From an uncultured Actinomycetes bacterium (lineage in GTDB: Bacteria > Actinomycetota > UBA4738 > HRBIN12), in the NCBI GenBank assembly GCA_963706005.1, contig CAVPLL010000002.1, positions 22,148 to 86,147 on the forward strand: a DNA stretch of 64,000 nt, given 5' to 3'. A program made the position numbers and the translations under genes. Each line of letters begins with the position of its first letter. Position 1 is the first letter of the stretch. This document shows, in pieces, positions 20,394 to 61,958 of this stretch. The notes under the pieces were generated by a model, which saw nothing but the letters and a program-made list of their open reading frames with translations, did not search any database and was not told the DNA's origin.

Positions 20394-20640
20394 GCGGGCC
20401 TCCCTCCGTCTTCCTGCGTCAGGACCCAGGTCCTGAGCGGGCGCAGGTGCCGCTCATTCACTCCTAGATCCGGCAGAACCGCAAATCGCCCGCCGCCGGC
20501 CGCCCCGGGGACGTGAGGGTTCAGGACACGACGATCTCCGAGCTCCCGATCCGGGCGTCGAGCAGCGTGAGCAACCGTGCCCCGCTTGTCGAACGACTCG
20601 TCTCGATGGCCGATGAGGTGGGCGCCGACCCTGGCGCCGC

Positions 20641-21888
20641 TCAGGTGAGCTCGACCCGCACCGGCATGTGCTTGATGCCGTTGATGAAGTTCGAGCGGAG
20701 GCGCTCGATCGGGCCGGTGATCTCGAGGCTCGAAAGGCGCGGTATCAGCTCCTCGAACATCACCCGGACCTCCAGGCGCGCGAGGTGCGCGCCCAGGCAG
20801 ACGTGGGGCCCTCCGCTTCCGAACGCCATGTGCGGGTTCGGGTCACGGCCGACGTCGAACCGTTCGGCGTCGGGGAAGACCTCCTCGTCGTAGTTGCCCG
20901 ACACGAACCAGACGACGACCTTGTCGCCCTCGCGGATCGACGTGCCTCGCAACTCGAGGTCGCGCGCCGCGGTCCGACGGAAATGCATCGTCGGCGAGCC
21001 GTACCGGAGGATCTCCTCGGTGGCCAGCGGCAAGAGCGCGGGGTCCTCGCGGAGCCGCCGCCACTGATCCGGATGATCCACCAGGGCCCGCACGCCGTGG
21101 GTGATCGCGTGCCGCGTCGTCTCGTTCCCGGCCACGATCAGCAGGCAGAAGAAGTTGTCGAAGTCACGCTCGGACAGGCGCTCGCCGTCGAGCTCGGCCT
21201 GGACGAGCTTGCTGACCAGGTCGTCCTTCGGTTCCGCCCGTCGCTCGTCGGCGAGGCCGTGGCCGTAGGCCATGAGTTCGACCGCCGCCGGGCTCCGGAA
21301 GGGGAGGAGGCGAAACTCGCTCGTGTCCTCCTTGTCGATCACTGCCCGCGAGTACTCGGGATCGGCCTGGGCGATCATGGCGTCGCCGAGCTCGACGCAC
21401 ATCGGCAGATCCTCGTTCGGGACGCCCATGATCCGAGCGAGGACGCGGATCGGGAGCTCCCGCGAGATCTCCTCGACGAAGTCGAACTCCTCCTTGGGCA
21501 GACCCCGGTCGAGCACGAGCCGAGCCTGCTCACGCACGAACCCTTCGTACTGGGCGACCGCGCTCCTCGTGAAGAGCTTGGTGACCAGGCGCCGGAGCCG
21601 CGAATGGCCCGGCGGATCCATGTCGATCATCGACCGCCGGGCCTGGACCTCTTCCTCGGTCTGCTCCTCGAGCGTCACCCCATGGGCCGACGAGAACGTC
21701 TTCGTGTCGCGGAGGATGTCCTCGATGTCGTGGAACCGGGTGACCGCCCAGAAGCCGCGGTTCGGCGTGGGCTCGGGCTGCCAGTGGACGGGATCGCGCT
21801 CGCGGAGCTCCCGGAAGGCCCAGAGCGGGACTTCGTCCACGAAGGCGTCGTGGCTCGACAGATCGATCTCGTCCAGTCGAACGCTCAC
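20641..21888 (-). CDS. cytochrome P450
   Basis: 415 aa with the heme-thiolate loop FGSGGPHVCLGAHLARLE, I-helix LLIVAGNETT and an EILRY (ExxR) motif. Intact. Confidence 0.95.
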   Translation of the reverse strand: MSVRLDEIDLSSHDAFVDEVPLWAFRELRERDPVHWQPEPTPNRGFWAVTRFHDIEDILRDTKTFSSAHGVTLEEQTEEEVQARRSMIDMDPPGHSRLRRLVTKLFTRSAVAQYEGFVREQARLVLDRGLPKEEFDFVEEISRELPIRVLARIMGVPNEDLPMCVELGDAMIAQADPEYSRAVIDKEDTSEFRLLPFRSPAAVELMAYGHGLADERRAEPKDDLVSKLVQAELDGERLSERDFDNFFCLLIVAGNETTRHAITHGVRALVDHPDQWRRLREDPALLPLATEEILRYGSPTMHFRRTAARDLELRGTSIREGDKVVVWFVSGNYDEEVFPDAERFDVGRDPNPHMAFGSGGPHVCLGAHLARLEVRVMFEELIPRLSSLEITGPIERLRSNFINGIKHMPVRVELT

Positions 21889-36712: not shown

Positions 36713-37042
36713 CTACCTGGGCCGGATCTCGACCACGCCGTCGACGACCCGAGTCTCGTAGGCGGGGACGGGTTCGGTCGCGGGCCCGCGGAGGACCCTC
36801 CCGTCGGCGAGATCGTAGGTGCTGCCGTGCAAGGGGCACTGCACCGTTCGGAGCGAACCCCCGAACCTAACCGGCCCCTTGTGGAGCGGGGCGCCCTGGT
36901 GCGAACAGCGGTTCCCGATCGCGAACAGCTCGTCGCCGCTTCGGACGAGGAGCACGGCCGAACCGTCCAGGTCGACCCGAACGGGCTTCCGATCAACGAG
37001 ATCGGTCAGGGCCAGCGCGGGGAACCAGCCGTCATCCGCCAC
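36713..37042 (-). CDS. Rieske (2Fe-2S) ferredoxin-type protein
   Basis: 109 aa with CSHQGAPL...CPLHGSTY (CxH...CxxH). Divergent from the dsrE-like gene. Confidence 0.85.
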   Translation of the reverse strand: MADDGWFPALALTDLVDRKPVRVDLDGSAVLLVRSGDELFAIGNRCSHQGAPLHKGPVRFGGSLRTVQCPLHGSTYDLADGRVLRGPATEPVPAYETRVVDGVVEIRPR

Positions 37043-37175
37043 GATCGGCGCATCATCGCATCCGCGCCCCCACGGCGCCCGAGCTGGTACCCCGCTGGGA
37101 CCGGGGCGGAGGGACCCTCACTTCCCGGGTCGTCCGGTCCGGCACCGGTTGCGGGCGGACTCCTACCGTGGTCTC

Positions 37176-37192
37176 GGGCACATAAGTGTCCC
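37176..37192. promoter_or_regulatory. imperfect inverted repeat GGGCAC-ATAA-GTG(T)CCC immediately upstream of the dsrE-like RBS
   Basis: Read directly. It is the only AT-rich patch in the 170-bp divergent region 37043-37211 and ends 6 nt before AGGAGGTG. Function is untested. Confidence 0.2.
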
Positions 37193-37211: not shown

Positions 37212-37580
37212 ATGGCCGACCAGGAGAAGCTCGTGTTCATGGTCACGCACGGGCCGGACGAGGCGGAGCTCGCCACGATCCCGTTCGTGATGGCTGCGGC
37301 GGCGGTCGCCTCGGACGTGGATGTCGTGATGGGCTTCCAGGCCGAAGGCGTCCGTCTCGTCCAGGAGGGCATCGCGGAGAAGGTCGAGGCACCGGAATTC
37401 GCCCCGCTGCGTGAGCTCCTTCCCAGCATCCTGGAGTTCGGGGGGAAGCTGCTCGTCTGCAACCCCTGCCTCAAGAGCCGGCAGATCCCCGAGGAGGCCC
37501 TCGTGCAGGGGGCGGAGATCGTTGCCGCCGGACGCTTCATCGCGGAGATCACGTCGGCGACGAACTGCCTCGTCTACTAG
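37212..37580 (+). CDS. DsrE/DsrF-like sulfur relay family protein
   Basis: MADQEKLVFMVTHGPDEAELATIPFVMAAAAVASDVDVVMGFQAEGVRLV...GGKLLVCNPCLKSR fits the DsrE fold pattern. AGGAGGTG RBS. Confidence 0.75.
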   Translation: MADQEKLVFMVTHGPDEAELATIPFVMAAAAVASDVDVVMGFQAEGVRLVQEGIAEKVEAPEFAPLRELLPSILEFGGKLLVCNPCLKSRQIPEEALVQGAEIVAAGRFIAEITSATNCLVY

Positions 37581-37622
37581 GTCGCAGGGACCGAGCGGTC
37601 CCGCTGGATGGAGGGACATGAG

Positions 37623-37889
37623 ATGACAACCGCACTCGACGACGCTCAGGTCGCGTCGCTCGTTCCCGAGAAGGTCGTGGATGCTCGCGGGTCCGCGTGT
37701 CCCGGTCCGCTCCTGGAAGCCAAGAAGGGCATCGGAGCGGTCGGGATCGGAGCCGTCCTCGAGATCTGGTCGAGCGATCCGAAGACGAAGTCCGATGTCG
37801 AGGCGTGGGCTGGCAAGGTCGGCCACGGGTTCCTCGGGGTCCTGCCAGCCGACGGCTACGAGCGAGTGTTCGTTCGTCGGCAGAAGTGA
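37623..37889 (+). CDS. TusA-like sulfurtransferase
   Basis: DARGSACPGPLLEAKKG carries the TusA CPxP active-site motif. About 88 aa. GGAGGG lies 6 nt upstream of the ATG at 37623. Confidence 0.8.
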   Translation: MTTALDDAQVASLVPEKVVDARGSACPGPLLEAKKGIGAVGIGAVLEIWSSDPKTKSDVEAWAGKVGHGFLGVLPADGYERVFVRRQK

Positions 37890-37948
37890 TCGGCGGCGCC
37901 GGGGGCGGATCGCTGTCCCGCCCCGGGCCCTGAGGAGTTGAGGTCGGA

Positions 37949-38395
37949 ATGGACTCGGCGACGGTCGGGGATGCACGACCGACGAGGGTGCTTGTGCTCG
38001 CATCGTTGCTCTGCGCCTATCCGGGGATCGACTCGACCGGGCAGGCGCACCTCGAATACCCTGCGAACACCTACGTCCTTGCGACGCCCGACCCCGTCAT
38101 CTTCCCCGAGCACTTCTACCTGTACTGCTTCGATCACGGCATCGACGCCATCCTCATCGCGTCCTGCGGCACCGACAGCCCGTACGAGGGGACGTACGAG
38201 CAGCTCGCGGCTCGCGTCGGCCGGGTCTACACGGCGATGAAGACGCGAGGGCTCGACATCCGGCGGCTCAGGCTCACCGCGATCTGCAGCGTCTGCACGA
38301 AGGCGTTCGTGAAGGAGGTCTCGGACCTCGCGGAGCTCGTCGCGGAGCTCGGGCCCGCGGGTTCGGAAGTGACGTCGGGAGGTGTGGCCGCGTGA
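37949..38395 (+). CDS. MvhD/FlpD-like (methyl-viologen-reducing hydrogenase delta subunit family) protein, divergent
   Basis: RVLVLASLLCAYPGIDSTG...YPANTYVLATPDPVIF...GIDAILIASCGTDSPYEG...RLRLTAICSVC follows the MvhD layout. Several canonical Cys positions appear substituted (judged from memory of the family). The stop overlaps the next gene's GTG. Confidence 0.55.
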   Translation: MDSATVGDARPTRVLVLASLLCAYPGIDSTGQAHLEYPANTYVLATPDPVIFPEHFYLYCFDHGIDAILIASCGTDSPYEGTYEQLAARVGRVYTAMKTRGLDIRRLRLTAICSVCTKAFVKEVSDLAELVAELGPAGSEVTSGGVAA

Positions 38396-39753
38396 ACGCC
38401 CTCCCCGATGACCTGATGGGTCCCAAGCCGGCAGCGCGGACGGTCTGGACGGACGTGCTCGTCGTCGGCGCCGGGATCGCGGGTCTCCAGGCCTCCCTCG
38501 ACCTCGGCGACCAGGGGTACCACGTCCTGCTCGTCGAGCGGGATGCGAGCATCGGCGGCCACATGATCGGGCTCTCCAAGGTGTTCCCGACCATGGACTG
38601 TGCGAGCTGCATCACGACGCCGAAGATGTCCTCGGCGGCGCATCACGAGCTCGTCTCAACGCTCACGTACAGCGACGTCCGGTCGATCGAAGCGGTCGGA
38701 GACACCTTCGAGGCGACGATCGTCCGGCGACCTCGCTACGTCGACGAGGACGCGTGCATCGGCTGTCGGCTCTGTGAGTACGCGTGCCCCGTCGACGTGC
38801 CGCACGAGTTCGACGGCGCGCTCGGTGCCCGGCGCGCGGTCTACGTGCCGTTCGGGACGGCGATCCCCCAGAAGGCCGTGCTCGACCTCCCGAACTGCAT
38901 CCTGTGCGGGAAGTGCGTGAAGGCCTGTCCGACCGACGCGATCGATCTGCAGCAGGAGCCGGAGACGATCGAGGTCCGCGCCAAGGCCGTCGTCCTCGCG
39001 ACCGGCTTCCGGCCGACCCGGACCGACGCCAAGCGCGAGTACGCGGCCGCGGGAGCGTCGAACGTGATCAGCGGGCTCGACATGGAACGCCTGCTCGCGC
39101 CGAACGGCCCGTACGGGCGGGTGCTGCGCCCCTCGGACGGGAAGATCCCCGAGAGCGTCGCGTACGTGCAGTGCGCCGGTTCGCGCGACGAGACGCTCGG
39201 CGTGCCGTACTGCTCGCGCGTCTGCTGCATGTACGCGATCAAGCAGGCGATGCTGCTGTCGGGCGCGTTGCCGCTCGCGGACATCACCATCTACTACATG
39301 GACATCCGAACGTTCGGCAAGGGGTACGAGCAGTTCTACCAGACGGCTCGGTCGATGGGGATCGGATTCGTGAAGGGCAAGGTGGCGCGCGTCTCCGAGC
39401 GCCCCGATGGCGATCTCACGCTGCGTGTCGAGCTCCAGGAAGAGGGGGGTCGCGTCGCCGACGTCCAGCACGACCTGGTCGTGCTCTCCGTCGGTCTTCA
39501 GCCCGGAGACGACGTTCGTCGGTTCGCTCCCGTCGCAACGGACGCCTACGGGTTCGTCCGTTCGATGGACGCGGCGCTCGACGTCACGCGGACCGACGTG
39601 CCCGGTGTGTTCGCGGCCGGCACGGCGCTCGCACCGAAGGACATCGTCGACACGATCGCCGAGGCGAGCGCGGTCGCCGTACGGGTGTCGGCATACCTGG
39701 GTCGTGCCGCGGACGTGACAAGGGACCTGGTGGGGGTGGCCGCTCATGGGTGA
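38392..39753 (+). CDS. HdrA-like FAD/Fe-S oxidoreductase (QmoA-like)
   Basis: VLVVGAGIAGLQASLDLGDQGYHVLLVERDASIGGHM; CIGCRLCEYACP and CILCGKCVKACP ferredoxin motifs; HdrA signature CAGSRDETLGVPYCSRVCCMYA. Confidence 0.8.
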   Translation: MNALPDDLMGPKPAARTVWTDVLVVGAGIAGLQASLDLGDQGYHVLLVERDASIGGHMIGLSKVFPTMDCASCITTPKMSSAAHHELVSTLTYSDVRSIEAVGDTFEATIVRRPRYVDEDACIGCRLCEYACPVDVPHEFDGALGARRAVYVPFGTAIPQKAVLDLPNCILCGKCVKACPTDAIDLQQEPETIEVRAKAVVLATGFRPTRTDAKREYAAAGASNVISGLDMERLLAPNGPYGRVLRPSDGKIPESVAYVQCAGSRDETLGVPYCSRVCCMYAIKQAMLLSGALPLADITIYYMDIRTFGKGYEQFYQTARSMGIGFVKGKVARVSERPDGDLTLRVELQEEGGRVADVQHDLVVLSVGLQPGDDVRRFAPVATDAYGFVRSMDAALDVTRTDVPGVFAAGTALAPKDIVDTIAEASAVAVRVSAYLGRAADVTRDLVGVAAHG

Positions 39754-41599
39754 GGACGTCGCCGGGCGCAGGATCGGCGTCTACGTCTGTCACTGTGGCG
39801 GCAACATCAGCGACGTCGTCGACGTCGAGGCGGTGACCGACGACGTCGGCGCGGAAGCAGACGTCGTCGTGGCGCGCCACCTGCAGTTCATGTGTTCCGA
39901 CGAGGGCCAGGCGACGATCGAGCGGGACATCGCGGAGCAGGGCCTCGATCGGGTCGTCGTGGCGGCGTGTACGCCGAGCCTTCACGAGACGACGTTCCGG
40001 CGTGTCGTGGCTCGCGCAGGCCTGAACCCCTACCTCTACCAGCACGCGAACATCCGGGAGCAGGTGAGTTGGGCGCATGTCCACGACCACGCCCTAGCGA
40101 CCGACAAGGCGCGTCGGATCGTTCGAGCGGCGGTCGCGAAGGCGACGCGGCTTCACCCCCTCGAGCAGGTGCGCGTCGACGCCGTCCATCGGACGCTCGT
40201 TGTGGGCGGCGGCGTTGCGGGTCTCCGCGCCGCCCTGGACCTCGCCCACTCGGAGATGAACGTGATCCTCCTCGAGCGGACCTCTCAGCTCGGGGGGCAC
40301 GCGTCGAGGCTCGGCGTTACCTATCCGACCGGCGCTCCGGGCTCGGCGCTGGTCGAGCGGCTCGCATCAGCGGTCAAGGGGGAGCCACGGATCGAGGTCC
40401 GGCTGTCGACCGAGGTATCGGACGTGGCGGGCTTCGTCGGAGACTTCCGTATCTCGCTCCGATCGCTCGACGCTTCTGGGGACGACGGGCCGCCCCCCGA
40501 GGTCGTGGAGGTCGGCGCCGTCGTCGTGGCGACGGGGTTCCGCGACTACGAGCCAACGCTCGGCGAGTACGGCTTCGGCTCACCTCGCGTGGTCACCCTC
40601 CCTGTGTATCAGGCGCGACTGTTCGGCGCGCGGGAAGGAGCCGAACTGCCGACGGCCCTCGGCATCGACGGGCCGTTGCGCTCGGTCGCGTTCCTGCATT
40701 GCGTGGGGAGCCGACAGGTCGAGGGAGTCGACCAAGCGACAGGGGAGCCGAACACCTATTGCTCCCGGGTCTGCTGTACGGCCTCGCTCCTCGCCGCAGC
40801 GGAGACGCGCCGTCGCTTCCCCGATGTCCGCGTCGTGGACGTCTACCGGGACATCCGAACCTACGCCCGGGATCAAGAGGACACGTACCGCGCGGCGGGC
40901 GAGGCCGGCGTCGTGTTCGTCCGCGTCCCGGCCGACGAGCGGGCGCGGGTAGAGGCCGCTCCCGCCGAGGATCCGTATCCGCTCCTGGTCCGAACACGCG
41001 ACGCGCTGACGTTCGGCGCCGAGCTCGAGCTGCCCGTCGACCTGGTCGTGCTCGCGACCGGCATGGAGCCGGGTGGGGCCGAGGCGATCGTTGCCGCGAC
41101 GAAGGCGCCGACGGGCGCCGACGGCTTCCTCCTGGAGGTCCATCCAAAGTTGCGGCCGGTCGAGAGCGCGATCCCCGGGATCTTGCTCGCGGGCACCGCA
41201 CGCGGCCCGATGGACATCAGCGAGAGCACGACCTCGGCGTCCGCCGCCGCGGCCAAGGTCGCCACGCTCCTCGGGGGCGACCACGTGGAGATGGAACCGT
41301 TCGTCGCGCGCGTCGACCCATCCCGGTGCTTGGGCGCGGGCGTGTGCCTCCAGGCATGCGCCTACGCGGGGGCGATCGGGCTCCACGACGTCGAGATCGA
41401 GGACGGCGTGGTCGAGCGCCGAGCGTACGTGAACCCGGTCGCCTGCAAGGGCTGTGGCGCCTGCGTTGCGGCCTGCCCGAATGGAGCGATCGACGTGATG
41501 GGTTGGGAGATCGACCAGTACCTCGCGATGGTGGACGCGATCGCGCGTGACCCCGCGACGGGCGGCGGGACCGAGCCCGAAGGGGTGGCCACGAGATGA
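39746..41599 (+). CDS. HdrA-like FAD/Fe-S oxidoreductase with N-terminal HdrA domain and C-terminal 2x[4Fe-4S] (QmoB-like, lacking a fused MvhD domain)
   Basis: IGVYVCHCGGNISDVVD; VVGGGVAGLRAALDL...LLERTSQLGGH; CVGSRQVEGVDQATGEPNTYCSRVCCTAS; C-terminal CLGAGVCLQACAYAG...CKGCGACVAACPNGAI. 8-nt overlap with the previous gene. Confidence 0.8.
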   Translation: MGEDVAGRRIGVYVCHCGGNISDVVDVEAVTDDVGAEADVVVARHLQFMCSDEGQATIERDIAEQGLDRVVVAACTPSLHETTFRRVVARAGLNPYLYQHANIREQVSWAHVHDHALATDKARRIVRAAVAKATRLHPLEQVRVDAVHRTLVVGGGVAGLRAALDLAHSEMNVILLERTSQLGGHASRLGVTYPTGAPGSALVERLASAVKGEPRIEVRLSTEVSDVAGFVGDFRISLRSLDASGDDGPPPEVVEVGAVVVATGFRDYEPTLGEYGFGSPRVVTLPVYQARLFGAREGAELPTALGIDGPLRSVAFLHCVGSRQVEGVDQATGEPNTYCSRVCCTASLLAAAETRRRFPDVRVVDVYRDIRTYARDQEDTYRAAGEAGVVFVRVPADERARVEAAPAEDPYPLLVRTRDALTFGAELELPVDLVVLATGMEPGGAEAIVAATKAPTGADGFLLEVHPKLRPVESAIPGILLAGTARGPMDISESTTSASAAAAKVATLLGGDHVEMEPFVARVDPSRCLGAGVCLQACAYAGAIGLHDVEIEDGVVERRAYVNPVACKGCGACVAACPNGAIDVMGWEIDQYLAMVDAIARDPATGGGTEPEGVATR

Positions 41600-41928
41600 G
41601 CGACGCGACCACCTCCAGGGAGAATGAACCCGGGCTCGTCCAGCTCAAGCACGCGGGCACGATCGCTCTGTACAAGGAGGGCCACGGGCCGGCATCCGCG
41701 GAACTGCTCGAACGCGTTCGGGCGCAGAACCACGTGAAGGCCGCCGTCCGCAGGGCGCTCGCCGCCGGATCCCTGACGCCTCCCCAGGTCGCCGAGGCGG
41801 CCGGGATCACGCCGCGCGAGGCGCTCTGGACGCTCACCGCGCTCCGCAAGTACGGCCTCGTCGCGGAGGACGGCGAGGACGGCGCCTACGTCCGCTACGC
41901 GCTCACCCGGGAGGACCCACGAGCATGA
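41596..41928 (+). CDS. small winged-helix-like protein of unknown function, wedged between the QmoB-like and QmoC-like genes
   Basis: 110 aa. LTPPQVAEAAGITPREALWTLTALRKYGLVAEDGEDGAYVRYALT reads as HTH plus wing. ATGA overlaps at both ends (41596-41599 and 41925-41928). Confidence 0.5.
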   Translation: MSDATTSRENEPGLVQLKHAGTIALYKEGHGPASAELLERVRAQNHVKAAVRRALAAGSLTPPQVAEAAGITPREALWTLTALRKYGLVAEDGEDGAYVRYALTREDPRA

Positions 41929-43115
41929 GCACCCAGGTCGTCGAACGCGCGAAGGTCCGGGTCGAGCCGAGCCTGATCCCCGAGCTCGAACGGTTCGGCG
42001 CGATCGACGTCGCGGCCTGCTTCAACTGCGGTAATTGCTCGGCGGTGTGTCCGCTCTCGACGCCAGACGGTGCGTTCCCTCGCAGGCTCATCCGGTACGC
42101 GCAGCTCGGCATGCGGGACGACCTGCTCGCCAGTCCGGAGGTCTGGTCGTGCTACGCGTGCGGCGAGTGCACGCTCACCTGTCCTCGCGACGCCGATCCG
42201 GCCGGGTTCATGGCAGCCGCCCGCCGGTACACGACCGCCGGCTACGACCGGACCGGCCTCGCCCGCCGCCTCGCGACCTCTCGAGGCTTCGCGATCGTCT
42301 TCATCGGCGCCGTGGTGACGGTGCTCGCGGCCTTCATGTACCGAGCGCATCAGCCGGTCGACGGGTCCACCTTCGCACCGTTCGAGTTCCTCCCGGCGCG
42401 GTTCGTGCACGATCTCGGCGTCGTGGTGCTCGCGGTCTTCGGCGTCGCTGCGGTCGCCGGTCTCATCGAGATGCATCGCCGGATCACTCGCCACGGACCG
42501 GACGGGCGGGACGGGCTCGCGCTGGCCGAGCTCGGCGGCGCCGTCTGGTACGCGGCGGCCCGAGAGTCCTTCGGCCACGAGCGTATGCGGCGGGAGTGCG
42601 CCGACGACCAGGACGCGATGCCTCGTCCGTGGTTCCTGCAGCGGTGGTTCGTCCACGCCTCGACGATGTGGGGGTTCATCGGGCTGCTCGCGGCGACGAT
42701 CCTCGATTGGGTGCTCGACATGACCGGGGTCAAGCCGACGGGCCGGGCCGTGCCCCTCTGGTATCCGGTCCGCCTGCTCGGGACCCTCGCGGGCATGCTC
42801 CTCGTCTACGGGACCTCGGTCTCGATCGTCCGGCGGATCCGCAAGCGCGAACGGTCGACTGCGAGATCCACGCTCGCGGACTGGTGGTTCCTATGGCTCT
42901 TGTGGCTGGCCGGCGTCACCGGCTTCGGCCTGGAGCTGACGCTCTACCTGCCGGATGATCCCGGATGGGGATACCCGATCTTCCTGTTCCACGTCGCGGT
43001 CTCGATGACGCTCGTCGTGCTGGCGCCGTTCGGCAAGTTCGCGCACGCGATCTACCGCCCGGTGGCGCTCGGTGTCATCCGGTCCCGCCGCCGCGCGGGA
43101 GGTGGAACACCATGA
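41925..43115 (+). CDS. HdrC-like 2x[4Fe-4S] domain fused to HdrE/NarI-like six-TM heme-b membrane domain (QmoC-like)
   Basis: CFNCGNCSAVCP and CYACGECTLTCP, then hydrophobic helices with conserved His (FVHDLGVVVLAVFG..., FVHASTMWGFIGLL..., FLFHVAVSMTLVVLAPFGKFAH). Confidence 0.8.
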   Translation: MSTQVVERAKVRVEPSLIPELERFGAIDVAACFNCGNCSAVCPLSTPDGAFPRRLIRYAQLGMRDDLLASPEVWSCYACGECTLTCPRDADPAGFMAAARRYTTAGYDRTGLARRLATSRGFAIVFIGAVVTVLAAFMYRAHQPVDGSTFAPFEFLPARFVHDLGVVVLAVFGVAAVAGLIEMHRRITRHGPDGRDGLALAELGGAVWYAAARESFGHERMRRECADDQDAMPRPWFLQRWFVHASTMWGFIGLLAATILDWVLDMTGVKPTGRAVPLWYPVRLLGTLAGMLLVYGTSVSIVRRIRKRERSTARSTLADWWFLWLLWLAGVTGFGLELTLYLPDDPGWGYPIFLFHVAVSMTLVVLAPFGKFAHAIYRPVALGVIRSRRRAGGGTP

Positions 43116-43555
43116 CGAAGGACGTGGGGGTCGCGGACCGCGTCGTCGAGCCCATCGCTTCCGGCCGCGACGAACTCGGCAGACCCGAGCATCGCGGCTG
43201 GCTGACCTGCGGCGGCCGGCGTCGGTGGATGGCCCCCTTCATCCTCGTCCTGCTGGCCGAGGAGCCGTCGCACGGGTACGGGTTGATCGGTCGCCTGCGC
43301 GAGATGGGGGTCGCCGGGGACACGATGGACGTCGGCCAGGTGTACCGCACGCTCCGGTGCCTGGAGCGGCTCGGCCACGTCCGATCTTGGTGGTCGGCCG
43401 ATCCCACCGGGCCGCGGCGCCGCGAGTACGAGCTCACCGACGACGGCCGAGCCGCCCTCGACGAGTGGGCCGTCGTGATGGCCGAACGTCAGCGGTTGAT
43501 CGACGAGTTCGAGGTCCGATACGGGGTGGCAGGGAGGATGGGAGGTGCGAGGTGA
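43112..43555 (+). CDS. PadR family transcriptional regulator
   Basis: FILVLLAEEPSHGYGLIGRLREMG...DVGQVYRTLRCLERLGHVRSWW...RREYELTDDGR. ATGA overlap with the QmoC-like stop. GGGAGGTGG RBS. Confidence 0.85.
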   Translation: MTKDVGVADRVVEPIASGRDELGRPEHRGWLTCGGRRRWMAPFILVLLAEEPSHGYGLIGRLREMGVAGDTMDVGQVYRTLRCLERLGHVRSWWSADPTGPRRREYELTDDGRAALDEWAVVMAERQRLIDEFEVRYGVAGRMGGAR

Positions 43556-44061
43556 CAGCGATGAGAGCGGGAGCGCGGACGATCGCCGAGGAGCATGAGG
43601 TGATCCGCGCGCGCCTGGAGGAGGTTCAGCGGCTCGCCGACTCGATCGGCGAGATCGGCATCGAGGATCTGGAGGGGCGCGCCGACGAGATCCACGGGTT
43701 CCTGGCCCACACCGTGATGCCGCACGCCGTGGCTGAGGGTCGGGTGCTGATCCCCGTCGTCCGCGAACGGACCCATGAGCCGACGATCGGCATCCGGATG
43801 ACGCAGTGCCACGTGCAGGTCGGCAGGCTCGTTGACGAGCTGCAACAGATCCTTTCCAAGGGCGGCGTGTCCTCGGGAGATGGTCAGCGTGACCTCAGGC
43901 GCGTGCTCTACAGCATCCACGCCCTCTTGACCGCCCACCTCGACGAGACCGAAGAGCAGGTCGAGCCTCTGCTGGAAGCGGAGCTGCCGGAGGAGGATCG
44001 GATGGCCCTTTTCGAGGCCGTTGAGCGGTGTGCTCGAGAGGTAGCCAGCCTCTACGAATAG
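43552..44061 (+). CDS. hemerythrin HHE cation-binding domain protein
   Basis: EEHEVIRARLEE, HGFLAHTVMPHAVAEG and HLDETEEQVEPLL. GTG at 43552 (GTGA overlap with the padR stop), or ATG at 43561. Confidence 0.7.
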   Translation: MTAMRAGARTIAEEHEVIRARLEEVQRLADSIGEIGIEDLEGRADEIHGFLAHTVMPHAVAEGRVLIPVVRERTHEPTIGIRMTQCHVQVGRLVDELQQILSKGGVSSGDGQRDLRRVLYSIHALLTAHLDETEEQVEPLLEAELPEEDRMALFEAVERCAREVASLYE

Positions 44062-44268
44062 CCAATGCAGGGGATCGCCGGGCCAACGGGCCCCGCGACC
44101 CTGGATGCCGATCGAACGAGGCCGAGCGCGCCCGACTCACGATCGCTCAGGCCCGCGGCGGAGAGTTTCCCGGGTCAGCGCGATGACCGAACGTCCCGTC
44201 CGGACCAGGGCTTCAGACCTGTCGCGAGGGACCGGGCGCCGTCACGCTTGCCCGAACGGAGGTGCGTG

Positions 44269-44541
44269 ATGGGTCGGTGGGAAGGCTTCCGGCAGTGCCC
44301 CGGCTGCGGCTTCGACATCGCGACCGGAGAAGGTGAGCGATCGTGCTCCTGGGGGGACTGCCCCTACCTGCCGGAGGATCTGGACGTCTTCTGCCCGAAC
44401 TGCCGCTTCAACTTCTTCACCTGGCAGGGCAACTCCGGGTGCGGTCACCCCGGGACGTGCGAAGACGGACTCGAGCCGCGCTCCCACGTCGCGAACGTCC
44501 AGGGCTGGCTCCTCTCGAAGCAGGCCCGACCTCGGATCTGA
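44269..44541 (+). CDS. small cysteine-rich zinc-ribbon protein, hypothetical
   Basis: MGRWEGFRQCPGCGFDIATGEGERSCSWGDCPYLPEDLDVFCPNCRFNFF...CGHPGTCEDG. CPxC...CPxC pairs. GGAGGTG RBS 5 nt upstream. Confidence 0.5.
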   Translation: MGRWEGFRQCPGCGFDIATGEGERSCSWGDCPYLPEDLDVFCPNCRFNFFTWQGNSGCGHPGTCEDGLEPRSHVANVQGWLLSKQARPRI

Positions 44542-44580: not shown

Positions 44581-44892
44581 ATGATTTCCGGCATCCTAGG
44601 CGGCCGCCAACCCGACCGCCGCGGTCCGGTTCGTTCGAGCGATACCAGCTCGAGCTCGCTTCGAGGCGATGGGGGGTTGGAGACGTCCTGGCTCCGAGCG
44701 ACGGGTCTGGCCGCCGTGATGCTGGTGGCGAGCTACCTCCTCTACGTGCTGATCCCGAACAACCTGCTCGCGTACCTCTCGCTCCACACGTCGCCTCGCA
44801 ACCGTGACCTCCTCGTGACCCTCTGGTGGCTCGTTGCGCTCGGGTTCGGATGCTGGCTCTTCGTCCGGCTGCAGCGGACGAGGGCGGGGTAG
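44581..44892 (+). CDS. hypothetical membrane protein (two TM helices)
   Basis: ...WLRATGLAAVMLVASYLLYVLIPNNLL...LLVTLWWLVALGFGCWLFVRL. The stop lies 3 nt before the next gene's start. Coding status is supported only by hydrophobic periodicity. Confidence 0.4.
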   Translation: MISGILGGRQPDRRGPVRSSDTSSSSLRGDGGLETSWLRATGLAAVMLVASYLLYVLIPNNLLAYLSLHTSPRNRDLLVTLWWLVALGFGCWLFVRLQRTRAG

Positions 44893-44894
44893 CC

Positions 44895-46742
44895 GTGCCG
44901 TTCGAAGCGAGTCCGATCGGAGCCGACTGGTTCGACGACAACGTGCCCTGCACCCGGGCGTGCCCCGTGCTCACGAACGCCGGTCGGTACGTGGCCGCGA
45001 TCGCCGCCGGCGACGATGAGCTCGCCTACCGGATCGCCCGCCTGCCGAACCCGTTCCCATCGATCTGCGGTCGGGTGTGCGCCGCGCCGTGCGAGATCGC
45101 CTGCCGCCGTGGGTCGATCGATCAGCCGATCGCGATCCGCGCGCTGAAGCGGTACGTCTGCGAGCGGTTCGGGGTGGAGAGCGGGCACGGTCCACACGCG
45201 TACGCGGACGCGATCTCGAAGGCGCCTCCGCGCGGCGAGCGCGTCGCGATCGTCGGATCGGGCCCGGCCGGCATGGCGTGCGCCCACGATCTGGCGACGT
45301 ACGGGTACCGCCCGGTGGTGTTCGAGGCCCAGGACCGTCCCGGCGGGATGATGGTGCTCGGCATCCCCCCCTACCGCCTGCGTCGCGATGTCCTCCAAGA
45401 CGAGATCCGGGCGATCTTGGACATGGGGGTCGAGCTGCGGACCGGTCAGGCCCTCGGACGGGACTTCTCGCTCGGCACGCTCCGCGACGAGGGCTTCGCA
45501 TCGGTGTTCCTGGGCGTCGGCTGCATGCGCGGCCGAGACCTGAGCATCCCGGGCGTCGAGCTCGACGGCGTCCTGCGCGCCGTGGACTTCCTGTTGAACG
45601 CGAACCTCGGGTACCGGGTGGAGCTCGGGGACGACGTGCTCGTGATCGGGGGCGGGAACGTCGCCCTCGACGCGGCCCGGACCGCCCTGCGAGAGATCGC
45701 GGCCGGTGGCTCGACCTCAGATGTGCTCGCGCCTGATGCCGACCAGGAGCTCGAGGGCGCGGTCACCCAGACCCTCGACGTCGCCCGCGTCGCGAAACGG
45801 CTCGGCGCGCGCCGCGTGCGGGTCGTGGCGCTCGAGAGCCGCGAGGAGATGCCGGCCCACGAGTTCGAGATCGAGGAGGCCGAGCTCGAAGGCATCGAGG
45901 TGCTCACCCGTCTGGGGCCGAAGGCGATCCTGGGCGAGGAGCGGGTGGGCGGGCTCGAGACGCTCCGGGTGGCTTCCGTGTTCGACCCCGACGGTCGCTT
46001 CAACCCGCGGTTGATCGACGGGACCGAATCGATCCTCGAGTGCGACTCGGTCATCCTGGCGATCGGCCAGGCGCCGGACTTGTCGTGGCTCTCGGACGAC
46101 GACGGCGTGGAGCTCAGCCCGCGCGGCACGGTGGCGGTCGATCGCGAGTCGCTCGCGACGAGCGCCGACTGGATCTTCGCGGGCGGCGACGTCGCGTTCG
46201 GCCCGCGAAACCTGATCGACGCGATCGGGGACGGCCGGCGCGCGGCGGCCTCGATCCACCGGCGGATCGCGGGCGAGGATGCACCCCTTCCCTCCGGCTC
46301 CGGGCGGAAGCTGCTCCCGATCCTGGAGGTGCGTGGACGGACGCCGGACTACACCGAATACCCGCGCATCCCGATCCCGGCCGAGCTCTCGGAACGCCGG
46401 ATCGGCTCCCCCGAGGTCGAGCTCGGGTACACGCCCGAGCAGGCACGCGAGGAGGCATCGCGTTGCCTGCAGTGCTTCCTCAACATCATGCTCGAGCCGT
46501 CGATCTGCATCCTGTGCGGGGGATGCGTCGACATCTGTCCCGAGAAGTGCATCCGCATCGTCCCCACGGAGGAGATCGCGGGGATCGAAGCCACGGGTCC
46601 GTCGAGCGCCCTGATCATCCAGGAGGAGCTGTGCATCCGGTGCGGGCTCTGCGTCGACCGGTGCCCCACGCACGCGCTGTCCCTGAAGGGCTGGTCGGAA
46701 TCGTCGACGGCTCCGATCGCGCTCGAGCCGGTCGGGATCTGA
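44895..46742 (+). CDS. GltD-like NAD(P)H-dependent FAD/Fe-S oxidoreductase fused to a C-terminal 2x[4Fe-4S] ferredoxin domain
   Basis: CTRACPVLTNAGRY...PNPFPSICGRVCAAPCEIACRR (GltD N-terminal clusters); VAIVGSGPAGMACAHDL; VLVIGGGNVALDAAR; C-terminal CLQCF...CILCGGCVDICPEKC...CIRCGLCVDRCPTHA. Ends 11 nt before cytochrome b6. Confidence 0.85.
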   Translation: MPFEASPIGADWFDDNVPCTRACPVLTNAGRYVAAIAAGDDELAYRIARLPNPFPSICGRVCAAPCEIACRRGSIDQPIAIRALKRYVCERFGVESGHGPHAYADAISKAPPRGERVAIVGSGPAGMACAHDLATYGYRPVVFEAQDRPGGMMVLGIPPYRLRRDVLQDEIRAILDMGVELRTGQALGRDFSLGTLRDEGFASVFLGVGCMRGRDLSIPGVELDGVLRAVDFLLNANLGYRVELGDDVLVIGGGNVALDAARTALREIAAGGSTSDVLAPDADQELEGAVTQTLDVARVAKRLGARRVRVVALESREEMPAHEFEIEEAELEGIEVLTRLGPKAILGEERVGGLETLRVASVFDPDGRFNPRLIDGTESILECDSVILAIGQAPDLSWLSDDDGVELSPRGTVAVDRESLATSADWIFAGGDVAFGPRNLIDAIGDGRRAAASIHRRIAGEDAPLPSGSGRKLLPILEVRGRTPDYTEYPRIPIPAELSERRIGSPEVELGYTPEQAREEASRCLQCFLNIMLEPSICILCGGCVDICPEKCIRIVPTEEIAGIEATGPSSALIIQEELCIRCGLCVDRCPTHALSLKGWSESSTAPIALEPVGI

Positions 46743-46752
46743 ACGGAGAGCG

Positions 46753-47589
46753 ATGGCCTCGAACGGACGGAGGGTGCGGGACCGGGTGTGGTACCGGTCG
46801 ATCTTCCACCCGGGCGAGGCCATCAAGGAGAGCGAGGTCTATCGATCCGCCATCCGGCACCCGTCACCGTCGACGCCCCGCGGCCGAGCGCTGACCTCGT
46901 TCCAGAACTTCTTCCTCCACCTGTACCCGGTGAAGGTGCCGCGCGAGGTGCTGTCGTTCCGATCGACACTGCGGCTCGGGTTCATCTCGACGGTGCTCTT
47001 CGGGGTGCTCACGATCTCGGGCATGTACCTGATGTTCTTCTATCACCCGACCCCTCCGGACGCGTACTTCGACATGCACTCGCTCGCGACGACCGTCGCG
47101 TTCGGGCAGTTCGTCCGCAACATCCATCGCTGGTCGGCCCACCTCATGGTGCTCACGGTGTTCGCGCACCTGCTGCGGGTCTTCTACGCCGGGGCGTATA
47201 AGCGACCTCGACAGTTCAACTGGGTGATCGGTGTCTTCCTGCTGCTGGGCACCCTCTTCCTGTCCTTCACCGGCTACCTGCTCCCGTGGGACCAGCTCTC
47301 GTACTGGGCGATCACCGTCGGGACGAACATCGCCGGCTACGTCCCGGTCATGGGCGACGGCGTGCGCAAGATGCTCCTCGGTGGCGCCGATGTCGGCAGC
47401 GCCACCCTGCTCCGCTTCTACGTCCTCCACGTCTTCTTCGTGCCGGCGCTGACGGTGATCGGGCTCTGCATCCACATCTGGCGCGTCCGCAAGGACGGCT
47501 TCGCGATCGCCGATCGGAAGCGGGAGCCGGCGCCCGCGCCCGAGGCCGAGGTCGCCCCGGCCCCCGAGGAGGTGAGCGCCGATGTCTGA
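46753..47589 (+). CDS. cytochrome b6-type (split cytochrome b, N-terminal four-helix part)
   Basis: FVRNIHRWSAHLMVLTVFAHLLRVF (His-13-His) and LRFYVLHVFFVPALTVIGLCIHIWR (His-14-His, the b6-type spacing), plus FTGYLLPWDQLSYWA. Confidence 0.9.
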   Translation: MASNGRRVRDRVWYRSIFHPGEAIKESEVYRSAIRHPSPSTPRGRALTSFQNFFLHLYPVKVPREVLSFRSTLRLGFISTVLFGVLTISGMYLMFFYHPTPPDAYFDMHSLATTVAFGQFVRNIHRWSAHLMVLTVFAHLLRVFYAGAYKRPRQFNWVIGVFLLLGTLFLSFTGYLLPWDQLSYWAITVGTNIAGYVPVMGDGVRKMLLGGADVGSATLLRFYVLHVFFVPALTVIGLCIHIWRVRKDGFAIADRKREPAPAPEAEVAPAPEEVSADV

Positions 47590-48094
47590 TGAGGCCGAGC
47601 CGCGGGAGCGCTACCGGCTCCTCGGCGTCGTCCCTCGCGAGATCGAGCAACGCGAGGAGCAGGAGCCCGACGACACCGTCTTCACCTGGCCCCACTTCCT
47701 GATCCGGCACCTTGTGGTCGCGGCCGTCACCATCGCGATCGTGTTCGCGATCGCGATCGCGTTCGACGCGCCGCTGAAAGACATCGCCAACCCCAGCCTC
47801 ACGCCGCAGGAGGCCAAGGCCCCCTGGTACTTCGCCGGTCTGCAGGAGCTGCTCGCGCACCTGCAGCCGATGGTCGCGGGGATCCTCATCCCGGGCGCCG
47901 CCCTCGTGTTCCTGTTCGCCCTCCCATACCTCGATCGCGGCGAAGGGTGGCGGATCAGGGACCGGAAGATGGTCGTGATCGTCCTCACCGTGCTCGCCGT
48001 GGCCGCGTTGGTGCTCACGGTCGTCGGTGCGTTCTTCCGGGGTCCCGGCTGGTCGTGGGCGTGGCCCTGGGATCACCTCTATCTGGAGCTGTAG
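47582..48094 (+). CDS. cytochrome b C-terminal part / subunit IV (PetD-like)
   Basis: TWPHFLIRHLVV...TPQEAKAPWYFAGLQELL (PEWY-box equivalent). 8-nt overlap with the b6 gene. Confidence 0.85.
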   Translation: MSDEAEPRERYRLLGVVPREIEQREEQEPDDTVFTWPHFLIRHLVVAAVTIAIVFAIAIAFDAPLKDIANPSLTPQEAKAPWYFAGLQELLAHLQPMVAGILIPGAALVFLFALPYLDRGEGWRIRDRKMVVIVLTVLAVAALVLTVVGAFFRGPGWSWAWPWDHLYLEL

Positions 48095-48142
48095 CGATGG
48101 ACGGCGAACGAGACACCTGCGGAGGCGCCCGGGTCCGAGCCC

Positions 48143-48637
48143 ATGGCTCGACGGGACTTCCTGAACACGACGTGGAAGGTCCTGGGCGTGGCGCTCATCG
48201 TCGAGGCCGGGTGGACGAGCTACGACATCTTGAACCCGAAGCCGGCCGCCGGGTTCGGTGGGATCGTCGACGCGGGTCCGGTCGAGGACTACCTCACCGA
48301 AGGCACGGTGCAGTACTTCCTCGACGGGCGCTTCTACGTGACCCAGTTCCAGGGTGGCCTGCGAGCGCTGTATCAGAAATGCCCGCACCTGGGCTGCAAG
48401 GTCGGCGATTGCACGACCGCGGGCGCCTCGTCGGGCTTCCGATGCCCCTGTCACGGGAGCATGTACAACGTGATCGGCGAGTACCTGGACGGGCCCGCGC
48501 CGCGCGGCATGGACCGCTTCCCGATCTCGATCGAGAACGGCCACGTCATGGTCGACACGTCATCGGTCGTCGAGGGCCCGGCGCGAGGGGTCCTGACGGG
48601 CCCGACGGAGCCTCCGACCGCCTGCGGGGGCGAGTGA
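48143..48637 (+). CDS. Rieske [2Fe-2S] subunit of the cytochrome b6/bc-type complex
   Basis: Tat-like MARRDFLNTTWKVLGVALIV, then CPHLGC...(16 aa)...CPCHGSMY. Confidence 0.9.
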   Translation: MARRDFLNTTWKVLGVALIVEAGWTSYDILNPKPAAGFGGIVDAGPVEDYLTEGTVQYFLDGRFYVTQFQGGLRALYQKCPHLGCKVGDCTTAGASSGFRCPCHGSMYNVIGEYLDGPAPRGMDRFPISIENGHVMVDTSSVVEGPARGVLTGPTEPPTACGGE

Positions 48638-49106
48638 TGACGGAGACGCTGCGCGAGGATCCGACCCTCGTCCGGAGCTCGATGCGGTGGAGGTGGGTCG
48701 GCACCTTCATGCTCGTGCTGCTGGTGGTCGCCTTCCCCCTGTACAAGGCCGTCGAGTCCTCCCGTCGAGCGGACGCGGTGCGCTCGCAGGACGTCGCCCT
48801 GATCTCGTCCGGTCAGCAACTGTGGGCGCTCAACTGCGCGGCGTGCCACGGCGAGAACGGCCAGGGCGTGAGCGCGCCCGCGCTGAACTCCCAGGAGTTC
48901 TTCGAGGGGACCTCCGACGAGCAGATCGCGGGCATCGTGCGGGGCGGCGTTCCGGGACCGCGATGCCGGCCTGGTGGAACGAGTACGGGGGGCCGCTCAC
49001 CGACCAGCAGGTCGCCGAGGTGGTCGCGTACGTCCGCTCCTGGGAGCAGACGGCGCCGAGCTGCCCGGATTGGCGCACGCCCTCGTGCCCGGGGACGGGG
49101 GCCTGA
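48637..49106 (+). pseudogene. membrane-anchored monoheme cytochrome c, frameshift at a G-run near 48954-48956
   Basis: TM anchor WVGTFMLVLLVVAFPLY and heme site CAACHGENG. After ...IVRGGVPG the frame changes. The distal-ligand segment TAMPAWWNEYGGPLTDQQVAEVVAYVRSW is in the frame of ORF 48687..49106. Confidence 0.8.
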
Positions 49107-49111
49107 GGGCG

Positions 49112-60336: not shown

Positions 60337-60363
60337 CCACCCAAGGAAACCGGTTGGCGATCG

Positions 60364-60434
60364 CTGGCCCGCCTGGATTCGAACCAGGACTAACTGATCC
60401 AGAGTCAGCCGGGCTACCGTTACCCCACGGGCCA
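60364..60434 (-). tRNA. tRNA-Gln (anticodon CUG)
   Basis: Minus strand: TGGCCCGTGGGGTAACGGTAGCCCGGCTGACTCTGGATCAGTTAGTCCTGGTTCGAATCCAGGCGGGCCAG. It has U1-A72 with G73, a perfect 7-bp acceptor stem, anticodon loop CTCTGGA, and T-arm CCTGG-TTCGAAT-CCAGG. Confidence 0.9.
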
Positions 60435-60437
60435 GTG
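60404..60437. repeat. direct repeat copy A (34 bp; tRNA-Gln positions -3 to 31), candidate att site
   Basis: gtcagccgggctaccgttaccccacgggccagtg is identical to 63399..63432. Similarity extends imperfectly over the anticodon loop (60398-60403 versus 63393-63398, 2 mismatches). Confidence 0.9.
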
Positions 60438-60561
60438 TGTGACCTGCGGAAATGCTGCACTCCGGCCGAGCACACCGCCTGTAGCCCAGATAGCTCGGGA
60501 GGCCGGATTGACCGCAGACACGGCTCGAACGCTACCACGCGAAGGTACGGCCACCGGCCCG

Positions 60562-61761: not shown

Positions 61762-61958
61762 CTCGATCTCTTGCTCAGCGTCCGTTGTTCGGCCCCCCGG
61801 CCGCTCGTGTCGATAGGCTGGCAGAACGGGCGCATGGAGGCCTGTCCTCCTTCCGGCCTACAGCTCACTCCGCTCTCGGCAACTCAGACGATCGGCTCGC
61901 TGTGCGGCGCGAACCCCCGGTGCGCCCCAGGAGAAGGCAGAGCTCGGCGATCGAGGGA

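Follow-up and report, generated by a model that had tools for sequence, protein, structure and literature searches.

A TusA-linked operon for a putative Hdr/Qmo-type membrane complex conserved over many bacterial phyla

Introduction

Within a 64,000-nucleotide stretch of DNA from an uncultured Actinomycetes bacterium (assembly GCA_963706005.1, contig CAVPLL010000002.1, positions 22,148 to 86,147 of the forward strand; hereafter the window), a run of genes starting at position 37212 on the + strand encodes sulfur-transfer proteins of the DsrE and TusA families, a stand-alone MvhD-like subunit, two HdrA-type flavoproteins, a small winged-helix protein and a membrane subunit related to QmoC. The genes of this locus form one operon which, judging from what they encode, probably represents an undescribed route by which electrons move between the respiratory chain and sulfur or thiols bound to protein. 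More specifically, we give about even chances to the reading that the operon encodes an autonomous, TusA-dependent membrane complex of Hdr/Qmo type, coupling a thiol or persulfide reaction to quinone, and not an accessory of the adenosine 5′-phosphosulfate (APS) reductase AprAB. All the parts are of known families and the overall logic is Qmo/Hdr-like; what sets it apart, and of which we found no account in the searchable literature, is its obligatory TusA, the stand-alone MvhD bearing a CxxC motif, the complementary splitting of HdrA between two flavoproteins, its winged-helix gene and the lack of linkage to apr.

Modules of the Qmo and Hdr types play a central part in anaerobic energy conservation. 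In canonical Qmo, an MvhD-like domain is fused to the C-terminus of QmoB and the genes are linked to aprBA; the role of QmoB with its MvhD domain, as well as the identity of the “third partner” of Qmo, were left open (Ramos et al., 2012). A group of “type II” Qmo proteins, the naming of which follows Chernyh et al. (2020), is described in a later paper as resembling typical HdrA more than bacterial QmoAB, of unknown function, and present both in the sulfate reducers V. moutnovskia and A. degensii and in organisms devoid of Dsr or Apr (Neukirchen et al., 2023; PMC10504309). The searchable text of that paper neither links TusA or an MvhD variant to Qmo nor mentions a winged-helix gene, and its remark on type II Qmo is the nearest counterpart that we met in the searchable full-text literature, where no description of the gene cluster itself was found.

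Results

Conservation of the gene set

The QmoC-like protein was searched against one genome per GTDB species (185,579 species genomes), yielding 378 relatives, and the best 80 of these loci, all from metagenome-assembled genomes and with flanks of up to ±10 kb, were compared with the proteins of the window by tblastn (loci are cited below with the prefix L). The first-pass annotation, made from the window sequence, had raised the co-occurrence of this gene order across genomes, and such co-occurrence is what the comparison returned: the order and orientation TusA–MvhD–HdrA′–HdrA″–(winged helix)–QmoC are retained in 70 of the 71 loci with sufficient upstream DNA, and the set spans at least nine bacterial phyla. 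Since the same order is found in 70 independent loci of many phyla, the arrangement is not a chance one; intact open reading frames (ORFs), strong family scores and conserved synteny rule out both fortuitous grouping and pseudogenes. Identity to the QmoC-like protein of the window amounts to 66–72% in Actinomycetota, 43–60% in many Chloroflexota (Limnocylindrales, Anaerolineae) and 39–50% in Acidobacteriota, Planctomycetota, NC10/Methylomirabilis, Desulfomonilaceae, Syntrophales, Gemmatimonadales, Polyangiaceae, Thermoleophilia and Bacteroidales.

Median identities to the window computed over the more distant loci (L037–L080) are 59% for the shorter flavoprotein (453 aa), 58% for TusA, 50% for the MvhD-like subunit, 49% for the longer flavoprotein (617 aa), 45% for the QmoC-like subunit, 38% for DsrE and 37% for the small winged-helix protein. 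Thus, TusA is as constrained as the best-conserved redox subunit.

Some loci deviate from the common layout. In L026 (5724-7442), the MvhD-like subunit and the short flavoprotein are contained in a single ORF of 619 aa with no stop between them, which may be explained by a genuine gene fusion or by misassembly. Orphan QmoC-like genes unaccompanied by flavoproteins, TusA and MvhD occur in L042 (10001-11116) and L039 (4996-6114, minus strand), the latter, with 193 bits on the qmoC model, directly adjoining an ArsR gene. A plasmid search with the QmoC-like protein gave partial matches to its iron-sulfur domain only.

In the window, the core run from DsrE to the QmoC-like subunit comprises seven tightly packed codirected genes on the + strand, several starts overlapping the preceding stop. 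The six genes named in the first-pass annotation were all recovered at their positions and on the + strand from the ORF list and from Pfam and NCBIfam profiles. Its inventory was incomplete, having overlooked the 110-aa winged-helix gene as well as the genes of a PadR-family regulator (43112-43555) and a hemerythrin-domain protein (43561-44061), by which the operon is extended past the QmoC-like gene according to the public gene call on an identical short contig.

The sulfur carriers and the MvhD-like subunit

The TusA-family sulfur carrier (37608..37889, +; 93 aa; Pfam TusA E = 9e-17) has a CPGP motif and is a core component, its gene adjoining that of the MvhD-like subunit in all 70 complete loci and its Cys31 being invariant in 70 of 70 sequences. 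The DsrE-family sulfur-transfer protein (37212..37580, +; 122 aa; Pfam DsrE E = 3e-15), for which the nearest solved structure is the DsrE/DsrF-like protein 3mc3, is accessory: it was detected by tblastn in 42 of the 80 loci, preceding the core in Actinomycetota and Limnocylindrales but placed after QmoC in the others, with Cys83 invariant in 45 of 45 relatives. The initial view that DsrE- and TusA-like genes lead the module is therefore upheld by the profile scores, with TusA constant in complete loci and DsrE frequent. No fusion of TusA with MvhD was seen among the long MvhD-like representatives inspected.

The stand-alone MvhD/FlpD-like subunit (37949..38395, +; Pfam FlpD E = 3e-14), for which the public gene call begins approximately 15 codons later than 37949 and gives 133 aa, was modeled with AlphaFold2 (mean predicted local distance difference test score, pLDDT, 79) and compared by Foldseek to the MvhD chains 5odc_D, 8rvu_F and 7bkb_F with template modeling (TM) scores of 0.72–0.82; according to this model, the MvhD fold is retained. 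Canonical MvhD has five conserved cysteines, in the motifs CxWC, PCSG and GCHxGDC that follow strands 1, 2 and 3, respectively. The window protein, as was recognized from the outset, is encoded by a separate gene upstream of the QmoA-like one and has lost several canonical cysteines: two of the five positions are kept and three are gone. Other clades keep other subsets, Bacteroidales (L071, L075, L076 and L077) together with L038 possessing PCSS plus HEC or EEC besides the CxxC described below. Six Chloroflexota loci (L014, L034, L035, L036, L040 and L045) keep none at all, the CxxC pair being their only cysteines, so that a four-cysteine [2Fe-2S] site within the subunit is impossible in this part of the family.

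This new CxxC (C113-x-x-C116 in the window) is invariant in 71 of 71 MvhD-like sequences, all of which read (A/T)(I/V)C(S/T)VC at the site of canonical W(I/V)SASEG. In the AlphaFold2 model, it sits between the strand 107-110 and the helix 117-134, which by fold topology would place it on the sheet edge that bears the cluster-ligand loops in genuine MvhD, and the modeled strand-CxxC-helix arrangement corresponds to the classical geometry of redox-active dithiols. A survey of 150 MvhD representatives obtained by exhaustive search of 1.84 billion cluster representatives separated two types. Those with CxxC are always stand-alone proteins of at most ~215 aa; the CxxC is absent from those with the canonical cysteine set, among them all the MvhD domains that form part of a long HdrA/QmoB-type protein. 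From these alignments, the CxxC can be regarded as the conserved functional element of the MvhD-like subunit.

Two flavoproteins with complementary parts of HdrA

Both flavoproteins match HdrA very strongly (E = 1e-122 to 1e-148) and carry the CxGSR(D/Q)...YCSRVCC signature noted initially, in the forms CAGSRD...YCSRVCC and CVGSRQ...YCSRVCC. The first, QmoA-like protein (38392..39753, +; 453 aa; NCBIfam HdrA2, 459 bits) consists of a flavin adenine dinucleotide (FAD)-binding, TrxR-like core with one four-cysteine cluster, an inserted 2x[4Fe-4S] ferredoxin domain and a DCxSC motif, while neither the N-terminal domain nor the C-terminal ferredoxin domain is present, the match to the HdrA2 model covering model positions 137-561 and the Fer4 matches residues 116-190. 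Its conserved cysteines are C122/125/128/132, C169/172/175/179, C261/274/278/279 and C70/C73. The second, QmoB-like protein (39746..41599, +; 617 aa; NCBIfam HdrA2, 496 bits) comprises the N-terminal cluster domain of HdrA, the FAD core and the C-terminal ferredoxin domain, and has neither an inserted ferredoxin domain nor a DCxxC motif, nor is MvhD fused to it; it aligns with HdrA from the Protein Data Bank (8rvu_a, E = 1.6e-122) over HdrA residues 12-242 and 319-658, and conserves C15/17/50/75, C319/339/343/344, C528/534/538 and C567/570/573/577. As the first motif of its C-terminal ferredoxin domain has three cysteines (C528, A531, C534 and C538), an open-site cluster next to the CxxC was considered; some relatives, however, have a Cys at position 531, and the idea was not retained for the family as a whole.

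The flavoproteins thus carry complementary subsets of HdrA domains, and a heterodimer would rebuild one complete HdrA-like module: the element set of bifurcating HdrA (FAD site, N-terminal and TrxR-domain clusters, inserted and C-terminal ferredoxin domains) is complete but spread over two paralogs. In the Mvh-Hdr structure, we take the N-terminal cluster domain with the C-terminal ferredoxin domain to be the entry path from MvhD, the inserted ferredoxin domain to be the low-potential exit to ferredoxin, and the high-potential exit to lead to HdrC. Since the split keeps all three bifurcating branches, a third redox partner is implied, either ferredoxin or the reduced nicotinamide dinucleotides, NAD(P)H. 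A branch to a soluble low-potential carrier is supported by four Bacteroidales loci (L071, L075, L076 and L077) and L038, in which a GltD/NfnB-like NAD(P)H module of ~500 aa interrupts the short flavoprotein just after the inserted ferredoxin domain; the insertion is located at ~5.1-8.0 kb in these loci and is 33% identical to the product of window positions 44826-46742.

The QmoC-like membrane subunit and the winged-helix protein

The QmoC-like subunit (41925..43115, +; 396 aa), matched by Fer4 and Nitrate_red_gam, aligns over the full length of the NCBIfam qmoC model NF038018 with 182 bits, below the equivalog cut-off of 300, and nine relatives from several phyla behave alike, all being full length and all remaining below 300 (185–231 bits). 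Full-length homology combined with sub-cut-off scores in ten loci defines a sister family of canonical QmoC. The iron-sulfur part matches HdrC from the Protein Data Bank with E = 6e-12. Eight cysteines, the ligands for two [4Fe-4S] clusters, are invariant in 81 of 81 sequences; so are H244, H356 and H374, while H162 is found in 77 of 81. Six transmembrane helices are predicted from hydropathy, and the four histidines would suffice for two hemes b, one per membrane face, the pairs H162/H356 and H244/H374 fitting this arrangement. The initial description of an HdrC-like 2x[4Fe-4S] protein fused to a six-helix heme-b membrane domain is in agreement with all these features. Cys225 in a cytoplasmic loop is likewise invariant (81/81). 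Together with the HdrA2 scores of the two FAD/iron-sulfur flavoproteins, the full-length match to qmoC bears out the subunit architecture of QmoABC ascribed to the locus. The converse possibility raised at the outset, membership in a well-studied family outside Qmo with a different known partner, found no sign in its favor, no tree having been built.

The small winged-helix protein (41596..41928, +; 110 aa) has no Pfam match above the gathering score and no cysteine. In 75 of the 80 loci, its gene separates that of the second flavoprotein from that of QmoC; tblastn found none in the Bacteroidales loci L071, L075, L076 and L077 and a weak match in L038. The AlphaFold2 model (pLDDT 84) is closest by Foldseek to winged helix-turn-helix proteins of ArsR/SmtB/MarR type, with weak scores (TM ~0.45-0.5, E ~1e-3), and 31 close homologs are unnamed or “hypothetical” except for two evidently mis-assigned JGI names. 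The fixed, translationally coupled position of the gene, with start and stop overlapping both neighbors, suggests a stoichiometric subunit; an operon-internal regulator is the other role that may be considered.

Genomic surroundings and regulation

All ORFs of the 80 loci were clustered and representatives of the larger clusters were scanned with Pfam. Neither AprAB, Sat or DsrAB nor any HdrB/D-type protein, lipoate-binding protein or hydrogenase was found among the scanned neighbor families recurring in these loci. In the window, the reported absence of aprAB, sat and dsrAB within 64 kb agrees with the Pfam scan, as no Apr, Sat or Dsr gene occurs in its scanned parts, stretches such as 12360-14241, 17761-20641 and 60336-64000 having remained unscanned. 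The alternative weighed at the outset, namely a conventional Qmo-Apr system with aprAB/sat just outside the window, is argued against by the related loci. The composition of the recurring neighborhood, which holds thiol and sulfur accessory genes and no Apr, Sat or Dsr, favors an autonomous unit. Rhodanese genes recur near the operon in 11 loci, mostly of Chloroflexota, and other neighbors are restricted to lineages: PntAB to Limnocylindrales, OsmC with thioredoxin to Bacteroidales, and thioredoxin to two Actinomycetota loci. In ten Limnocylindrales loci (L015, L017, L018, L023-L026, L028, L029 and L061) a PntB-type NAD(P) transhydrogenase lies ~1.3-3 kb downstream of the QmoC-like gene (~12.4-14.3 kb), a proximity probably reflecting lineage synteny and not a functional link.

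Regulatory genes are frequent around the operon. An ArsR-family regulator is encoded directly upstream in 28 of the 80 loci if whole flanks are considered and in 26 within 3.5 kb; sigma-54/PAS activators recur in 13 loci, LysR in 12, and PadR is also recurrent. No claim is made that the ArsR neighbors are persulfide sensors of the SqrR/BigR type, since the C-terminal cysteine is present in 22 of 28 and its N-terminal partner in 9 of 28 only; their cysteine pair is spaced by 71 residues, the spacing in SqrR/BigR being 66. PadR next to the operon is specific to Actinomycetota and Limnocylindrales: it follows the core in L001, L002, L004 and L005, and many Limnocylindrales loci have it upstream. 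In the window, the PadR gene (43112..43555, +; Pfam PadR E = 3e-16) overlaps the QmoC stop with its start and is followed by the hemerythrin-domain gene (43561..44061, +; Pfam Hemerythrin E = 5e-13), the last operon gene in Actinomycetota, likewise kept after PadR in L001, L002, L004 and L005. An alignment of six upstream regions revealed the motif CCTATGTTGGCCnnAGGCATAC, which in the Actinomycetota loci L001-L005 precedes the ribosome-binding site of dsrE by approximately 25-45 nt and of which a degenerate copy lies upstream of dsrE in the window (37165..37190, +). This candidate operator may serve the PadR regulator of the operon. Scanning the operon for Rfam families, promoters and terminators gave no match.

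The window has a GC content of ~69%. Its Pfam-scanned parts encode cytochrome bd oxidase (subunits I and II, 3-2108, +), type-2 NADH dehydrogenase (11098-12360, +), cytochrome P450, glutamine synthetase, glutamyl-tRNA synthetase and isocitrate dehydrogenase, as well as a Rieske/cytochrome b cluster with a sulfocyanin-type cupredoxin. The oxidase and the dehydrogenase show that the host has an oxygen-using, quinone-based respiratory chain, and the set agrees with the aerobic actinobacterium-like genome supposed initially: the host looks like an aerobic or facultative actinobacterium.

Further respiratory and redox genes lie close to the operon. Downstream, positions 44826-51181 (+) hold a second respiratory gene cluster according to Pfam, composed of a GltD/NfnB-like NAD(P)H iron-sulfur flavoprotein (638 aa; 2x[4Fe-4S] domain at the C-terminus), cytochrome b6 and a PetD-like subunit IV, together with a Rieske protein and a protein of 764 aa that terminates in the sulfocyanin-type cupredoxin. 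Rieske/cytochrome b complexes with an NAD(P)H-oxidoreductase subunit recall the unusual ones discussed for anammox bacteria and Nitrospira. The GltD-like and cytochrome b proteins of this cluster had no tblastn match beside the Qmo-like operon in L001-L005. After the hemerythrin gene, an ORF of 158 aa (44065-44541, +) has a cysteine-rich, zinc-ribbon-like C-terminal half (CPGCG...CPNC...), with no Pfam match and no tblastn match in the 80 related loci. On the other side, a small soluble Rieske-type ferredoxin (36713-37042, -; Pfam Rieske E = 2e-19) is divergent from dsrE, sharing with it a 169-bp intergenic region, and gave no tblastn match in the related loci.

Comparison with known systems

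Canonical (type I) QmoABC, the quinone-interacting membrane-bound oxidoreductase found in sulfate reducers and certain sulfur oxidizers, resembles the system described here in its two HdrA-like FAD/iron-sulfur subunits, in the QmoC built of an HdrC-like part and an HdrE/NarI-like di-heme-b part, in the presence of an MvhD-type module and in the lack of HdrB. It differs in that the qmoC equivalog score is 182–231 bits here against the cut-off of 300, the MvhD-like subunit is encoded by a separate gene two upstream of the 617-aa QmoB-like one with CxxC replacing cluster ligands, the flavoproteins are very close to methanogen HdrA with its domains split between them, and an extra winged-helix gene and constant TusA linkage are found instead of linkage to apr/sat (80 loci, scanned families). 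Sequence searches of the Protein Data Bank with the operon proteins returned no Qmo chain. By description, the locus fits the HdrA-closer type II Qmo of PMC10504309, with which the very strong HdrA matches of the flavoproteins are consistent.

With MvhAGD-HdrABC, the flavin-based bifurcating heterodisulfide reductase of methanogens, the operon has in common the HdrA fold, FAD, cluster ligands, the MvhD fold, the HdrC-like domain and all three branches of HdrA, but it possesses neither hydrogenase nor HdrB, its HdrA is divided into two paralogs, its HdrC is fused to a membrane cytochrome b with quinone in place of heterodisulfide, and the MvhD-like subunit is devoid of the complete cysteine set for a [2Fe-2S] cluster. 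The sHdr loci, in which dsrE3-tusA stand beside shdrC1B1AHC2B2 and lbpA, also have DsrE and TusA leading an Hdr-related operon and, as here, ArsR-type neighbors are frequent; here, however, neither core nor scanned recurring neighbors include an HdrB-like CCG subunit or a lipoate-binding protein, HdrA is of the type with full cluster complement, and a membrane anchor is added. DsrMK(JOP) with DsrC offers a functional analogy only, namely a NarI/HdrE-type di-heme-b subunit and a cytoplasmic iron-sulfur protein acting on a small sulfur carrier, whereas DsrK is an HdrD-type CCG protein, DsrC has two cysteines and no flavoproteins are involved.

Discussion

Electron exchange between a persulfide or thiol carrier and the quinone pool, proposed in the first-pass annotation, remains the best-supported reading of the operon, although one that we infer and do not observe. 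TusA would dock on the MvhD-like subunit, being loaded by DsrE or rhodanese where these are present, and the substrate-side half-reaction would run between TusA-Cys31 and the CxxC (C113/C116) as an exchange of thiol/disulfide or persulfide type, standing in for the hydrogenase input as well as for the catalytic HdrB site of the methanogen enzymes. Electrons would then pass along the iron-sulfur/FAD chain of the HdrA-type proteins to the HdrC-like domain, the two hemes and menaquinone, the inserted ferredoxin domain providing a third branch to ferredoxin or, in the Bacteroidales variant with the GltD/NfnB-like module, to NAD(P)H. Such a ferredoxin or NAD(P)H branch is probably present in the complex, as far as domain content can tell. 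Overall, sulfide or thiol would likely be oxidized to sulfane sulfur on TusA, the electrons being bifurcated to quinone and ferredoxin; the reverse, in which quinol and ferredoxin would reduce TusA persulfide or a heterodisulfide, is equally possible. Ferredoxin has a potential of about -450 mV and the sulfane/sulfide couple lies at about -270 mV, while a potential of about -75 mV is given for menaquinone (Ramos et al., 2012). Since the midpoint between menaquinone and ferredoxin falls near the sulfane/sulfide couple, bifurcating oxidation of sulfide to TusA-persulfide, or its reversal, would be thermodynamically sensible.

Several points weigh against this scheme. Among the operon genes, the profiles revealed no HdrB/HdrD-type CCG subunit or other established disulfide- or persulfide-reducing site, and we know of no direct precedent in the MvhD family for the proposed CxxC chemistry. 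Alternatively, the CxxC could be the site of a metal, or of a cluster held jointly with another subunit or with a second copy of the protein. Bifurcation, as well as the choice of the FAD that would perform it, is purely read across from homology to HdrA, the scheme does not account for the winged-helix protein, and TusA proteins serve many pathways.

Other assignments of the complex have to be considered on the same evidence. The subunit logic of QmoABC and the full-length homology of the membrane subunit to qmoC would also suit a type II QmoABC in the canonical role, which would connect the quinone pool with an APS reductase or other soluble sulfur oxidoreductase encoded elsewhere, TusA and DsrE only feeding or removing sulfur intermediates. 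Type II proteins, closer to HdrA, occur in true sulfate reducers (V. moutnovskia, A. degensii) and also in organisms devoid of Dsr or Apr (PMC10504309), and some carriers of the present operon belong to Desulfomonilaceae or Syntrophales. Nevertheless, canonical qmo is typically aprBA-linked, and no Apr, Sat or Dsr was met either among the scanned recurring families up to 10 kb away in the 80 loci or in the scanned parts of the 64-kb window; most carriers (Actinomycetota, Limnocylindrales, NC10, Bacteroidales) are of lineages which are not known for dissimilatory sulfate metabolism, and the constant pairing of TusA with the CxxC-type MvhD points to a built-in partner. We therefore find the canonical role quite unlikely.

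The retained inserted ferredoxin domain, the GltD/NfnB-like NAD(P)H module inside the Bacteroidales flavoprotein and the lack of a recognized thiol-active catalytic subunit would be accommodated if the complex were a ferredoxin- or NAD(P)H:quinone oxidoreductase, or its reverse, assembled from Hdr/Qmo parts, in which TusA, DsrE and the MvhD-like protein would not form the substrate site but would help in assembly, regulation or protection, for instance as a source of sulfur when clusters are repaired. This we consider improbable: conservation at the level of the catalytic subunits and constant adjacency over at least nine phyla are not what an assembly factor would lead one to expect, thiol and sulfur proteins recur as neighbors, and the invariant CxxC on a scaffold normally docking to the electron-entry domain of HdrA would be left unaccounted for. 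The same CxxC, with the single invariant cysteine of TusA, would also be in line with a disulfide as the substrate in place of sulfane sulfur, in terms of a mixed TusA-MvhD-like disulfide acting as a “bacterial heterodisulfide” (compare DsrC and CoM-S-S-CoB) or of a link to thioredoxin or mycothiol, the complex being a quinol- or ferredoxin-driven reductase for redox homeostasis. Thioredoxin or OsmC genes downstream in some loci agree with it, and hemerythrin and PadR in the actinobacterial operon suggest redox or oxygen sensing; yet the thioredoxin and OsmC neighbors are sporadic, and DsrE and rhodanese neighbors together with the TusA family itself point to sulfane-sulfur transfer, so that a disulfide reductase appears unlikely as well.

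The TusA-dependent complex coupled to quinone, which we prefer, has a bolder version that we hold as doubtful. The operon would encode the first membrane-bound flavin-based bifurcating enzyme acting on a protein-bound sulfur carrier, interconverting sulfide or thiol and TusA-persulfide with electrons split between menaquinone and ferredoxin or NAD(P)H, and MvhD would have been turned from an iron-sulfur carrier into a CxxC thiol-disulfide catalyst. If true, this would be an unrecognized and energetically economical cytoplasmic sulfur redox route in abundant soil and sediment lineages, including Actinomycetota, Limnocylindrales and other Chloroflexota, Acidobacteriota, Planctomycetota, NC10 and Bacteroidales.

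For the function of QmoB with its MvhD domain and for the third partner of Qmo, the operon amounts to a natural experiment, having no AprAB nearby, MvhD detached and rebuilt on CxxC, and a sulfur carrier attached, and it offers a tractable test of how HdrA-type bifurcation may be wired to membrane quinone. Public annotations of the operon proteins are generic or misleading, and the reading given here, if true, would provide a function for proteins named “F420-non-reducing hydrogenase iron-sulfur subunit”, “nitrate reductase gamma subunit/ferredoxin” or “hypothetical”. Coupling of TusA-bound sulfur or thiols to the quinone pool would then constitute a new enzyme class in cytoplasmic sulfur trafficking, and a hidden capacity for sulfur redox reactions would be present in widespread soil phyla, including apparently aerobic Actinomycetota.

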